DNA from: an uncultured Planctomycetaceae bacterium | Lineage (GTDB): Bacteria > Planctomycetota > Planctomycetia > Planctomycetales > Planctomycetaceae | Length of the DNA stretch: 64,000 bases | Assembly (NCBI GenBank): GCA_963815195.1 | Contig: CAWFGE010000008.1 | Span: 597,290-661,289 of the forward strand | Direction of reading: 5' to 3' | Shown here: positions 41,677 to 64,000 of the stretch, in pieces | Layout: each line of letters begins with the position of its first letter | How positions within the stretch are numbered: position 1 is the first letter of the stretch | Translations under genes and position numbers: made by a program | Notes under the pieces: model-generated | The model's database searches: none | Seen by the model: only the letters and a program-made list of their open reading frames with translations | What the model was told of the DNA's origin: nothing

Positions 41677-41768
41677 AAACCTGAGCGGTCAGGCGCTAGC
41701 CTCCGGCTCTTGATTTTGGGAATAGCGCTTCATCGAAGCCGGAGGCTAGCGCCTGACCGCTCAGGTTT
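41677..41768. repeat. Perfect 32-bp inverted repeat (REP doublet, same family as the 25564 array)
   Basis: AAACCTGAGCGGTCAGGCGCTAGCCTCCGGCT and its exact reverse complement. Confidence 0.9.
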
Positions 41769-41790
41769 TTCAAGCTCCGCGGTGACCCTT

Positions 41791-59961: not shown

Positions 59962-61471
59962 TCATTCCGGACGCCACACCGGATCGATCATCTGCTGGTT
60001 GAGGTTCTGCCAGATAATCATAAGTTCCTGCAATTTTTCGGGATGCGTGGCGGCCAGGTTTTTGGACTCGGCCAAGTCCTCGCGTAAATTATAAAGTTCA
60101 AAATCGGGGGACGCCTGAGCCCGATCGGGATTTCCGACAATCTTCCAATCTCCCTGTCGAAGCGCCGTTTTATTTCGCATCCGCCAGTACAGCGTCTCAT
60201 GCGGCTTGCCCGGCGATTCGTTTTTCAGAAAAGGCAGCAAATTCACGCCGTCCAGCGGCCGATCCTGGGGCGGTTCCGCTCCCGCAAGTGCCGTGGCGGT
60301 CGCAAACACGTCCGTGGAAATCACCGGATGCGGATATTCCACGCCCGCCGGGAGCCGGCCTTTCCATTGGATGAGAAACGGCACGCGGATGCCGCCTTCA
60401 TAGAGATTCCCTTTTCCGCCCCGCAGCGGGCGATTGCTCGAGGTCAATTCTTTCGTCGGGCCGCCGTTGTCGCTGATCAAAAAAATCAGCGTGTTCTCTT
60501 CCAGATGGCGCTGTTGGAGGGTTTTGAGGATTCTTCCGATATTGCGGTCGAGATTGCTCAAGATCCCCGCGAACACCCGCCGGTGCGCGTCGAGACCGTC
60601 AAAAGGCTTCATATCCTCGAAGCGGGCCTGGAGCGGACTGTGCACCGCATTATAAGCCAGGTACAAAAACAACGGCTCTTCCCGAGGCTGCTCCAAAAAC
60701 CGCACCGCCTCCCGCGTGAACGCGTCGGTGAGATACGCGGGCTCCACAAGCGGCTCCCGGCCGCGGAGAACGGGGTTCTGCTCGTCGTAGGGCGGTTCGT
60801 TCGTGCCCATGTGGGACGTGTAAAGGATGTTCCCGTCCCGCCAGCGGGTTTTCATGTTCGCCGCCGCGGGCAGGTTTTTTTTTCGCAAGAACGAGAGAAC
60901 CCCCTCGTATGGCGGCGGGACGTAAAAGTGTCCTTCGTGCAGAAATCCGTAAAACTCGTCGAACCCCCGGCTCTGCGGGTGAAACGCCTCCGTCCCGCCC
61001 AGATGCCATTTGCCGATGAGGGCCGTCCTGTAACCTGCCGATTTCAGATGCTCGGCCAGCGTGCGCCTGCGCTCTCGGCAAGCCGGCTTTGGGATCGAGA
61101 TTGTGCCGGCCCACGGGATTGAGTTCATGCCCGAACCGCGTTTGATACCGCCCCGTCATCAACCCCGCCCGCGAAGGGCTGCAATACGACGCCGTCACAT
61201 ACCCGTTCGTGCAGCGAATCCCGTTCTTGGCGAGGGAATCGATCTGGGGCGTGGGAATCTGCGGATTCCCCTGGCAACCGAGTTCGCCGTATCCCAGATC
61301 GTCGACAAGTATTAGTACAATATTAGGTACACGCTTATTCTCCGCTGAAACCCCTTTTTTGCAAGTGCCTATTGACAGAATGGCTGGTCCGAGGATAAGA
61401 ATGAATGTAGCAAATTTGTGTAGTAAATGGGCAGGGAATCCATTCAAGGGAAAACGTCGCGAGAAGAACAT
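59962..61471 (-). CDS. Formylglycine-dependent sulfatase (single-base frameshift about 61066)
   Basis: [55 protein letters not shown] 7 nt before ATG 61471. Confidence 0.92.
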
Positions 61472-61560
61472 GAGCTGGCCTCCCAAAGGGGCTGATGCTG
61501 GCATATCGAAAACTCCGCTTTAGTATCAATCGCGCCGGGCGGCGGGTCAATGGCGGCGAT

Positions 61561-62892
61561 ATGGCGCAGAGCACGGAAAGGACGGAAAGGACGATGGGAA
61601 GAAAATCCAAAAAACGCAGGCAGTCGCACGGGTCCGCGTGGCATTGGAAACAAACTGACTGTTGGTATTACACCCGACCCGGCACGAAACAACGCGTGCC
61701 GCTGTTCGATGAGCAAGGGGAACGAATCCGGGGCAAGGAAAATCGGCAAGCCGCGGAGATCGCACTGGCTCGGGAAAAATTGACCTGGGAACGGGAACCC
61801 GCAGGCGGAGATGCCGGGGGCCAATGGATCGTGGCCCGCGTTTGTTCCGAGTATCTGGAGTATTGCGAGCGGGGATTGGCGAAAGGCACGATCAGCCTGG
61901 GGCATCGAAATAACTCCGCCGCCTGGCTGAACGATTTGTGCGGATACTGCGGAGCCCTTCCGGTGGCTCAGCTCAAGAAGGGGCACGTTCAAAAGTGGTT
62001 GGATAACCATCCGACCTGGCGGAGCCCTGCCACGCGCTCCGGGGTGATTGCCATTGTCTTGGCAGCGTTCAATCGGGCTGCCGAGATGTTTGGGATTCCG
62101 AATCCGATCAAAGGATTGAAGAAACCCAAGGCGGAACCGCGATTGGCATCGCTGACGCCGGAAGAGGAACAGGCGATCTATGAAGCCACCGAACCCCGTT
62201 TTAAGGAGTTCCTGTTCGCCAGCATCCATACCGGCCTGCGACCGTTTTGCGAGTTGGCGAAAATGACAGCGGATGACGTGGAAGAGACGCCGCGGGGGAT
62301 GATGTGGCGGGTCTATTCGTCCAAGACCAAAAAGACACGGAAGATCCCCGTGCGGCCGGAGGTGGCCGAGTTGACGCGAACTTTGATGGAAACGGCCCCC
62401 AAGGGCTCGGGATTGCCCCTCCTTCGGAACACCCAAGGCAATCCTTGGAAGCGGACCACCGGCGTGGTGCGGTTTATCGCGATCAAAAAGAAGTTGGGCT
62501 GGGACCAGGATCCCATTAAGGGGAAGTATTCCTGTTACACCTGCCGCCATACCTTTGCTCATCGGATGCTTTCCGGGTATTGGACGGACGGAGTGGGTTG
62601 CTCCATCGAAACCCTGGCGGAACTCATCGGCGATACGCCGAAGGTGGCTTTTGAGCATTACGGCAGGGAGTGGGGCCAGCATTATCAGGATCCGCTCTGG
62701 AACGCCATCGGGGAAGCCCGCGACGGAGACGCCAAAGCCGAGTCCAATGCAGCCGACGAAAAAACCTCGGCGAAAAGCCGCTCGAAATCCGGCCGACCGC
62801 ACGATAAAAAATCCCGCTCGGCCTCGAAGTCGGCGACTCAGAAAAAGCAAAAGCGAGCCGCCTCACCCCCAAGGAGAAAGTCGAAGGCATGA
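61561..62892 (+). CDS. Tyrosine recombinase/integrase 1 (start 61561 or 61594)
   Basis: TGLRPFCE, SKTKK, YTCRHTFA, LAELIGD...EHY; Lys/Ser-rich tail. Confidence 0.88.
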   Translation: MAQSTERTERTMGRKSKKRRQSHGSAWHWKQTDCWYYTRPGTKQRVPLFDEQGERIRGKENRQAAEIALAREKLTWEREPAGGDAGGQWIVARVCSEYLEYCERGLAKGTISLGHRNNSAAWLNDLCGYCGALPVAQLKKGHVQKWLDNHPTWRSPATRSGVIAIVLAAFNRAAEMFGIPNPIKGLKKPKAEPRLASLTPEEEQAIYEATEPRFKEFLFASIHTGLRPFCELAKMTADDVEETPRGMMWRVYSSKTKKTRKIPVRPEVAELTRTLMETAPKGSGLPLLRNTQGNPWKRTTGVVRFIAIKKKLGWDQDPIKGKYSCYTCRHTFAHRMLSGYWTDGVGCSIETLAELIGDTPKVAFEHYGREWGQHYQDPLWNAIGEARDGDAKAESNAADEKTSAKSRSKSGRPHDKKSRSASKSATQKKQKRAASPPRRKSKA

Positions 62893-64000
62893 CAAACAAC
62901 AACACGGGCCGTCAACGGCGATCTCGCGGGAAAGCCTGGTATTGGAAACAGACCGACAGCTGGTATTTCACTCCACCGGGAACCAAAGGCCGCGTGCGGC
63001 TGTATGATGAAGCGGGGGATCCGATCCGGGGCAAGGAAAATCGGCCCGCCGCGGAACTGGCTCTGGCTCGCGTGAAAGCCGCGGGCAACTGGTGCCCCTC
63101 CGCGGAACAGGCCAGCGAAGACCAGTGGGTCGTGGCGAAAGTGTGTTCACATTTCATCGATTATTGTGAACAGCGAGCGACCAAGGAAATGATTCGAATG
63201 GAATACCATGAAGAGGTCGTGCGTTATCTAAACGATTTCTGTGGCTACTGTGGGGCGCTGCCGGTGAATGACTTACGAAAAGGGCACGTGCAGCATTGGG
63301 TCGAAAGCCGCTCCACTTGGAAATCCCCGGTCACGAAGCGAAATGCAATGACGATCGTGTTGGGCGCCTTCAATCATGCTCAGGATATGTACGACGTGCC
63401 GAACCCGCTGACGGGGCTCAAAAAGCCGCCGCAAAAACCGCGGTTGCAATCCATTGATCCTGAGGAAGAGGCCCTCCTCTATTCCGCGACGGATGAGGCA
63501 TTCGCCAATTTTCTCTTTGCCGCAATTCAGACGGGCCTGCGGCCGTTTTGCGAATTGGCACGTTTGACGGTCGCAGATGTGGAGGAAACCGAGCGCGGGA
63601 TGATGTGGCGGGTTTACTTTTCGAAGACCAAGAAGACGCGAAAAATTCCGGTGCGATCGGAGGTCGCGGAATTGACTCGGGATTTGATTTCCCCGACCGC
63701 GGGAGAGTCCGGGGCCGTTGTCTTTCGCAATCCGCAGGGCCGCCCCTGGAAGAAAGTCACCGGCGGTGCCCGTTTTCGGAAGATCAAACGCGAACTCGGC
63801 TGGGATCAAGAACCCGCGCGGAAAAATTACTCCTGCTACACCTGCCGGCACACGTTTGCTCACCGCATGCTGGCTGGTTTTTGGAACGAGGGAGTGGGAT
63901 GCTCCATCGAAACGCTCGCCGAGTTGATGGGCGACACCCCGAAAGTGGCCTTCGATCATTACGGCCGCGAATGGGGCCAGCATTACCAGGAACCGCTTTG
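62889..64000 (+). CDS. Tyrosine recombinase/integrase 2, paralogue of 1 (runs off the window; not in the ORF track)
   Basis: Own translation MTNNNTGRQRRSRGKAWYWKQTDSWYF...TGLRPFCE...YTCRHTFA...LMGDTPKVAFDHY; ATGA overlap with integrase 1. Confidence 0.88.
   Translation, partial: MTNNNTGRQRRSRGKAWYWKQTDSWYFTPPGTKGRVRLYDEAGDPIRGKENRPAAELALARVKAAGNWCPSAEQASEDQWVVAKVCSHFIDYCEQRATKEMIRMEYHEEVVRYLNDFCGYCGALPVNDLRKGHVQHWVESRSTWKSPVTKRNAMTIVLGAFNHAQDMYDVPNPLTGLKKPPQKPRLQSIDPEEEALLYSATDEAFANFLFAAIQTGLRPFCELARLTVADVEETERGMMWRVYFSKTKKTRKIPVRSEVAELTRDLISPTAGESGAVVFRNPQGRPWKKVTGGARFRKIKRELGWDQEPARKNYSCYTCRHTFAHRMLAGFWNEGVGCSIETLAELMGDTPKVAFDHYGREWGQHYQEPL

Follow-up and report, generated by a model that had tools for sequence, protein, structure and literature searches.

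At the right-hand end of the window, the 64,000-nucleotide stretch of planctomycete DNA analysed here (positions 597290-661289 of contig C8 of the source genome, G000, with position 64000 being the last base of the contig), a sulfatase gene on the minus strand and two tandem tyrosine recombinase genes, int1 and int2, on the plus strand diverge from a short intergenic region (Table 1). The sulfatase gene is composite. Its minus-strand codons pass from CCT AAT ATT GTA CTA ATA CTT to GTC GAC GAT CTG GGA TAC GGC, and everything upstream of this switch, from the ATG (61471) through a hydrophobic stretch resembling a signal peptide to the PNIVLIL residues of the sulfatase motif, is contributed by the leader. 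The ribosome-binding site is placed 7 nt upstream of the ATG and, read on the plus strand, the element terminus starts from 61307 as AAGTAT. The first-pass annotation of this DNA had proposed an integrative element that targets sulfatase genes and rebuilds their 5' end; the GGAGG, the ATG, the hydrophobic leader, the in-frame PNIVLIL and the two integrase genes on which it relied are all located where it had placed them. The window end is read here, with a probability of about 0.88, as the integrase-side end of a site-specific island whose attachment site lies in the sulfatase xDD codons that follow PNI(V/I)xI(L/M). Junctions, direct repeats, empty sites, in-frame fusions and family-wide linkage were all observed in silico and are described below.

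Copies of the element in the same genome define its boundary. A blastn search of positions 61200-64000 against the genome revealed two further copies with 99.3-99.6% identity, at C25:2722..6 and C2:44637..47333, and a diverged, leader-only copy, 82.6% alike, at C13:661414..661088. All copies begin within window positions 61284-61293, and alignment of the flanks of the four left ends identified four different sulfatase genes, with the switch at one same codon, between ..CTAATACTT and G(C/T)(G/C)GACGA(T/C). The core is GCGGACGAT in the other copies versus GTCGACGAT in the window. Behind the near-identical 55-codon leader, C25 and C2 each have an open, full-length fusion, the two sulfatase bodies being 30% identical to each other. 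The three near-identical copies, each at the xDD codons of a different sulfatase, bear out the proposal that the element targets a conserved sulfatase motif and has many possible sites. Among 60 sulfatase 5' ends of the genome, 23 contain GCNGAYGAY and 7 the exact 9-mer. The full 12-mer CTTGCGGACGAT was found in 3 of the 60 genes, two of which are read as the C25 and C2 fusions; the third, for which the scan gave a count only, would be an unoccupied perfect site.

The opposite end of the element was sought by scanning all six frames for a sulfatase motif with a stop codon soon after it, and then by blastn and alignment. Three right junctions were identified in the genome, near C13:4894, C7:6788 and C14:138001. 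In each, a different native sulfatase 5' end, complete with ATG, signal peptide and PNIxxIxxDD, gives way after DD to a common end, AAGTATC(G/A)GAA(C/T)ACCACCACCGAGTAAGC.. In gene sense, an insertion consists of the host 5' fragment ..CTT GCG GAC GAT, followed by AAGTATCGG.. island ..CTAATACTT and then by the body, GCG GAC GAT CTG GGC.. The 9-bp direct repeat GCGGACGAT is present at both kinds of junction and extends to 12 bp, including CTT, in the C13 right junction, C25 and C2, while the element termini are inverted (AAGTAT/ATACTT). The far-end word GAYAAGTATCRGAA had no occurrence in the scan beyond the three junctions of this genome. A sulfatase 5' end at C13:197440 (minus strand), halting ~30 residues past the motif with ..TDDQGYGDLSITGNPYLKTPHKT and a stop, displays a truncation unlike the element junctions. 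Adjoining the C7 orphan fragment is a ~90-nt dispersed repeat (C7:6972-7060), of which dozens of copies, 77-86% alike, occur on most contigs, including one in the window at 41682-41769 (C8:638971-639058).

Over 4.9 kb the C7 and C13 ends, both of which extend to contig starts, match at 96.9%. Every long element end coincides with a contig end, with C8_R, C25_L and C2_R forming one set and C13_L and C7_L the other; this assembly therefore lacks the interior of the element. In the two sister copies int2 breaks no more than 11 nt from the place where the window copy does, no contig other than these two overlaps the last 300-1500 nt of the window, and one public-run contig record reaches 87 nt beyond position 64000. 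The C14 right end shares 548 nt only, at 84%, with the young right ends. Because this divergence matches that of the left relic (82.6% versus 84%), the C14 right end and the C13 leader-only relic suggest the two ends of an older lineage of a single element. The genome contains at least three young copies plus at least one older, decayed copy. Contig starts C1:1-1571, C3:1-2140 and C18:1-5500 are occupied by long arrays with units 72-83% alike, offset by ~70 nt. A contig-end triple (C14_R, C19_R and C21_L) was considered as the continuation of the element and dropped, because the three ends belong to another repeat, which encodes a serine recombinase of its own and has an internal copy on C18. 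That other multi-copy element (C14_R, C19_R, C21_L and C18:29475-30640) extends over at least 2.3-3.4 kb, encodes a large serine recombinase and breaks three contigs.

A complete island was located on one scaffold of Blastopirellula marina DSM 3645 (G064), where a single integrase gene (C2:764158-765303) accompanies a leader-fused sulfatase body (762512-763723). A motif match 65 kb past the integrase translates to an orphan, MRTLSFVATVSLLLAPLSLIAADKQPNVILIMADD followed by M and a stop, and a 10-bp repeat, CCGATGATAT, stands at both junctions, 66,865 bp apart. The intact orthologue in relative G158 (90% amino-acid identity) reads ..MRTPLLVAMLSLLLPPSFLCATEKQPNIILVMADDIGYECFGCYGSQ.. and, in a three-way alignment, matches the B. 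marina orphan as far as the repeat and the body beyond it; the orthologue in G157 is also intact. Insertion into the 5' coding region, flanking direct repeats and an empty site in relatives were accordingly found both for this genome and for B. marina compared with G158. The GC-rich orphan 5' fragments ending at xDD that the first-pass annotation had predicted were recovered three times in the source genome and once in B. marina, 66.9 kb from its body. An excised B. marina circle would join ..TTGATACTTA-CCGATGATAT-GTAGAAAG.., and the repaired gene would read ..ATCATGGCCGATGATATCGGCTAT.. The cargo of the island includes a large serine recombinase, an AAA ATPase, several transposases, an RHS-repeat protein and a Tle1-like protein. 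A full Wadjet set (DUF3375, DUF4194, an SMC-like ATPase and JetD; L209:18394-19875 and L219:45-5106) is positioned beside the orphan at the far end. No phage structural or packaging family was found among 35 long open reading frames (ORFs) of the B. marina island, 14 of them without a Pfam match, or among 7 ORFs of C7, and no relaxase or type IV secretion family among the long ORFs scanned in the B. marina island, C7 and G061.

Relatives without integrases reveal what the target genes look like when unoccupied. No integrase match was obtained in three congeners of the source genome. Their orthologues of the window sulfatase present 72-84% nucleotide identity, and the similarity ends at the junction; that of G001 (84%) has an unrelated leader, identity starting at VDDLG. 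Empty-site orthologues with unrelated native leaders (G001, G158 and G157) are what the first-pass annotation had anticipated. Orthologues of the C2 body (76-81% amino-acid identity) begin with ..EKKTPPNIVFILADD or ..AQKSPPNIVFILADD and, because these starts resemble the C13 orphan ..ETKTPPNIVFILADD, C13_L is probably the partner of C2_R. Synteny pairing of orphans with bodies through the three congeners, which are 16-28% diverged in DNA, gave matching flank genes with no sulfatase beside them, similarity ending at the flank gene.

An orthologue that bears the leader and no integrases, which the first-pass annotation had listed as contrary evidence, exists in one instance. In the G001 orthologue of the C25 sulfatase, the leader and spacer are followed by ~30 nt from the beginning of int1 before host DNA resumes, with no integrase, and the leader region is 84% identical to that of C25, equal to the value for the gene body. 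Because the spacer and the int1 start are still present, this arrangement is best interpreted as a decayed insertion and not as a native leader. The C25 insertion would then predate the split between the G000 and G001 species, have decayed in G001 and have served as the source of the young C8 and C2 copies. Positions 61472-61593 of the window persist in the decayed copies of G001 and C13:661 kb. Decayed copies, with the leader on a sulfatase and an integrase stub only, were noted at C13:661088-661414, G001 L036:3479-3822, L074, L075 and L086; in L075 and L086 the stub stands beside an open sulfatase. The G000 and G001 copies break at the same spot ~30 nt into int1 (..AAACGC(A/G)G), which suggests a recurrent deletion point.

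The G001 orthologue also bears on a different explanation, in which the leader is the native N-terminus of a sulfatase subfamily, the integrases are incidental and the copies arose by segmental duplication, with no targeting. Base composition offers this view some comfort. The leader has a GC content of 0.46-0.47 over the 165 nt before the motif, versus a mean of 0.55 (standard deviation 0.048) for the 60 sulfatase 5' ends, and three native 5' ends are equally low in GC, while the integrase genes have a GC content near that of the host. Composition was consequently rejected as proof of foreign origin. The boundary remarked upon in the first-pass annotation is real, as revealed by the repeat copies and not by composition; the low GC of the leader was confirmed, and AT-richness alone, shared by native genes, proved a weak argument. 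The native-leader explanation is nonetheless almost certainly wrong. Leaders that are 99-100% identical precede bodies that are 30-43% identical, with the switch at one codon; orthologues have unrelated leaders; orphan native 5' fragments are fused to the common element end; the G001 copy retains the start of int1; and the three-way alignment of the B. marina orphan, the body and G158 contradicts it.

The association between integrase and sulfatase extends well beyond this genome. Homologues of the integrases (Int) were found in 8 of 60 relatives searched, and all five in which the upstream side is covered have a divergent adjacent sulfatase with a homologous leader. The leader contains a DNA motif, of general form CATTTRCTACAC-N6-RCTACAYT, which is kept even where the integrases are only ~44% identical, and the TGTAGTAAA word and paired CTACAY words are present in both element arms. 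The motif is a candidate binding site of arm type for the recombinase or for an accessory protein. A scan for it with one genome per species identified 57 loci, almost all in Planctomycetota, against ~9 chance matches that we calculate at equal base frequencies. In 53 of the 57 the sulfatase motif is in frame, 34 codons past HLLH except in two loci (30 and 42 codons). Among these 53 fusions, 46 have an open frame of at least 449 aa, 4 run off the end of the locus and 3 are truncated; as in C25 and C2, the open fusions carry an in-frame replacement N-terminus encoded by the element. A divergent Int homologue is situated directly upstream of the leader in 38 of the 57 loci, the rest being mostly contig-edge or decayed. 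Cultured carriers are B. marina DSM 3645, Thalassoglobus neptunius KOR42 and Allorhodopirellula solitaria CA85.

A metagenome scan with a C-terminal integrase motif returned 71 loci, 59 of them distinct with an Int match. Two tandem integrases are present in 31 of these 59 and one in the rest; none has three. Thirty-six loci had enough upstream DNA to be assessed, and in 33 of them a sulfatase motif lies 150-480 nt upstream on the opposite strand, the residue before DD being A in 25, T in 3, S in 3 and V in 2. The expectation that homologous integrases, single or tandem, abut different sulfatases at the same codon was borne out in both collections (53/57 genome and 33/36 metagenome loci). The metagenome scan yielded no near-identical copy that bridges the gap in this genome, the best match being 76% identical, and a scan of IMG/VR for the leader motif gave 0 matches. 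No far end was found within 10 kb among the 57 genome loci or the metagenome loci, and the C7 cargo ORFs have no homologues among the 57 loci. Homology between the genes of four single-integrase islands extends for more than 55 kb, and far ends can therefore lie beyond the stretches examined.

In the mechanism proposed for the island, the adjacent tyrosine recombinase(s), two paralogues in the subfamily of the window and one in the other, would most likely recombine the element site with an identical short stretch within a sulfatase gene; the joined element ends would read ATACTT-GCGGACGAT-AAGTAT. A short core between inverted termini is the usual layout of tyrosine-recombinase core sites, and serine integrases use a 2-bp crossover. 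Insertion splits the gene, leaving the native promoter, the signal peptide and PNIxxIxxDD as an orphan at the far end of the island, while at the integrase end the body receives from the island a start codon with its ribosome-binding site, a hydrophobic leader and PNIVLIL. As the island leader continues in frame into the body, the sulfatase ORF is rebuilt. The motif is common to dozens of paralogues per genome, so that one genome offers many sites. We infer the acting recombinase, the exact cut positions, excision, and the transcription and export of the fusions.

A tyrosine recombinase gene beside one junction is characteristic of elements that target gene 5' ends, and such a gene is present here. 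It is highly improbable that a large serine recombinase integrates the islands instead, the tyrosine recombinase(s) serving resolution, inversion or some other role. Proteins of 683-803 aa with Resolvase and Recombinase domains are encoded in B. marina and G061, with homologues in other tandem-type relatives and on C15 of G000, but the gene lies 2-16 kb from the junction, whereas a tyrosine recombinase gene stands beside the leader in 38 of the 57 genome loci. Moreover, the junctions share 9-12 bp of identity flanked by short inverted repeats, a layout generally of the tyrosine type, and the conserved leader motif travels with the tyrosine recombinase gene. The region C15:262000-296000 of the source genome is a low-GC island (0.51-0.58) with a 765-aa serine-recombinase-like ORF, a 498-aa ORF and others, some of them 30-54% homologous at the amino-acid level to cargo ORFs of tandem-integrase relatives; neither a tyrosine integrase nor a sulfatase junction was seen within it.

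Several observations weigh against a site-specific island. In the source genome the link between integrase end and far end rests on matching junction anatomy and not on contiguity, and only two young far ends were found versus three young integrase ends. The native 5' end of the window sulfatase was not found in G000 with the G001 sequence as query, and the upstream flank seen in G001 sits elsewhere in G000 (C2:19769-19825). Eight further motif matches occur beyond the integrase in B. marina, G152 and G154 (L212, L219, L225, L228 and L230), and of the four that were translated three are intact sulfatases, the fourth being the B. marina orphan; in G153 a scan to the contig end gave no further motif match beyond the integrase. 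G061, the closest long-contig relative of the window element (Int2 74% identical), has three tandem-integrase copies on Mb-size contigs with no orphan, no ATACTT plus core and no second 12-mer within 60 kb. Its cargo comprises a STAND/HEAT protein, a serine recombinase and a ThiF protein, and every larger relative examined likewise has a large serine recombinase as a possible alternative integrase. In the metagenome-assembled genome G065, the long-contig copies L067, L080 and L099 share only the integrase and leader, ~1.56 kb. No circular or empty-site molecules were seen in the run data, which consist of contigs and cannot show them; at the junction these contigs displayed neither joints nor loose ends.

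Some of these observations would be accommodated if the recombinases also exchanged the integrase-leader module between chromosomal sulfatase paralogues, acting on an occupied junction and the xDD site of another sulfatase, so that one expression leader of the element would pass among family members through inversions or translocations in a shufflon-like manner. The absent orphan of the window sulfatase with its displaced flank, the three G061 copies without a nearby orphan and the G065 copies that have only integrase and leader in common all point in this direction, as does the leader of L067, which is joined after ADD to non-sulfatase DNA. Such an exchange is nevertheless improbable. B. marina and the three far junctions of the source genome are plain insertions with truncated orphans, and three near-identical integrase ends imply that the module was copied and not only moved. 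No hybrid sulfatase, combining the native leader of one gene with the body of another, was identified, and at the divergence of the congeners ordinary rearrangement can account for the lost synteny. In L067:9775-10095 (minus strand) the leader ORF runs past ..ILADD into unrelated DNA as a 106-aa ORF, and a 748-aa and a 567-aa Hsp70-like ORF come after it; this locus may represent an unrecombined element site or an off-target event.

The features of the window on which the island interpretation is based are collected in Table 1. The target gene belongs to the PF00884 sulfatases, including the N-terminal metal-binding DD region, with Pfam matches to its N-terminal part (E 8e-18, profile positions 1-66) and its C-terminal part (E 1.2e-37). 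In the assembly the gene is divided into two reading frames, split near 61066. A Logan contig of run X1 has one base fewer at 61066 and C instead of T at 61073 (depth 4.07). Because this read-derived contig and the orthologues of both G001 and G002 are without the extra base, the frameshift is probably an assembly error or strain variant and not decay; in our reading, the frame is open once that base is omitted. The promoters of the leader and of int1 presumably both sit in the divergent intergenic region; no RNA run was found to contain the stretch. Int1 and Int2 are 62% identical, and int1 has a second possible start, an open ATG located upstream at 61495. Across five aligned family members R216, K244/K247, R318 and Y356 are invariant, and we take these to be the catalytic positions of tyrosine recombinases, while NCBIfam gave weak Xer-like matches only, far under the family cut-offs.

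Table 1. Sequence features at the sulfatase-integrase junction of the window.
Feature	Position	Strand	Remarks
9-bp core GTCGACGAT (gene sense; codons V-D-D)	61298..61306	-	Repeated at both insertion junctions; presumed crossover region
Element-encoded replacement 5' end, 55 codons	61307..61471	-	Near-identical in three copies, each on a different sulfatase
Conserved DNA motif in leader, CATTTACTACAC-N6-GCTACATT, encoding HLLH...	61404..61429	-	Nucleotide-level conservation between subfamilies
Divergent intergenic region between leader and int1, 122 nt	61472..61593	.	GGGAGG ribosome-binding site at 61479-61484
Sulfatase body, host-derived	59962..61297	-	From just past the core to the stop codon; PF00884 in both halves
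Extra base causing the frameshift	61066..61066	.	Absent from read-derived contig and from G001/G002 orthologues
int1, tyrosine recombinase, 432 aa from ATG 61594	61594..62892	+	PF00589, E 1.2e-7
int2, paralogous tyrosine recombinase, first 370 aa, cut by contig end	62889..64000	+	PF00589, E 8.5e-12

Elements that insert into genes and preserve them are known in several forms. Phages and islands at tRNA genes or at icd (e14, phage 21) carry a copy of the displaced 3' end of the target, so that the gene stays intact. Such elements rebuild a 3' end, for which neither a promoter nor a start codon is required, whereas the sulfatase islands replace the 5' end, including start and leader. At the Mycoplasma pulmonis vsa locus and in shufflons, one promoter and signal-peptide 5' end is joined by a recombinase to alternative bodies. 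These, however, are fixed inverting chromosomal loci, while the sulfatase-island leader rides on a mobile island of 25-67 kb. Recombinase-in-trio elements have three tandem tyrosine recombinase genes; an identity with them was rejected, as the present elements have one or two integrases and none of the 59 metagenome loci has three.

The closest parallels are the dusA-specific integrative elements, such as IMEVchUSA3, described in the available part of PMC8409611, which insert at the 5' end, bring a new promoter and an altered N-terminus and restore the frame; the integrative and conjugative element SXT at prfC, as cited there, effects the same 5'-end replacement (PMC8409611). As far as that part of the source describes them, these elements share with the sulfatase islands a tyrosine integrase, an insertion in 5' coding sequence and a replacement N-terminus. 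They have one single-copy housekeeping target, whereas the sulfatase islands use a motif of a paralogous family and several copies coexist. The sulfatase islands further differ from the dusA and prfC elements in that their replacement segment covers both a signal-peptide-like leader and half of the N-terminal motif, in that they reside in Planctomycetota and in that one subfamily has two tandem paralogous integrases. GInts, according to the portion of PMC5385486 consulted, have several tyrosine recombinase genes at one end, sites in gene 5' ends, an outward promoter, imperfect repeats of 10-11 nt and heteroduplex resolution at the core. Their four-gene gin operon (ginABCD), all of which is required, differs from the one or two recombinase genes of the sulfatase islands, and in that portion a rebuilt coding N-terminus, as seen in the sulfatase islands, is not described (PMC5385486). 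No sulfatase-targeting elements were found in the literature searched, which left subscription journals outside its scope, and the accessible part of PMC4807772 makes no mention of them. Replacement of promoter and N-terminus is already known from the dusA and prfC elements; the use of a paralogous-family motif as target together with an export leader, and the phylum-wide spread of the element, appear new.

These islands use as their landing pad the DNA that encodes a conserved catalytic-site motif shared across a very large enzyme family, which offers many sites per genome and allows copies to coexist, the cost being kept low by rebuilding the gene start and leader. Many planctomycete sulfatases have an odd, non-native N-terminus (..FPRHLLHR.TTLA..), which bears on annotation and on the prediction of export. 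The leader motif flags island boundaries in a phylum with little-described mobile elements, and the cargo includes defence systems (Wadjet in B. marina). Recombinases with a defined short target are possible genetic tools for Planctomycetota, and the cultured carriers make the idea directly testable. A more speculative and, in our view, rather unlikely extension is that the islands shape sulfatase evolution and regulation in Planctomycetota, with the integrase(s) moving the promoter and export leader of the element between paralogues through recombination of an occupied junction with a free xDD site, decay fixing the leader on the host enzyme, as is seen in the G001 orthologue, C13:661 kb, L075 and L086, and HLLH being a by-product of a recombinase-binding DNA site. 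If this were true, part of the diversity of sulfatase N-termini and of the control of sulfatase expression would have a mobile-element origin.

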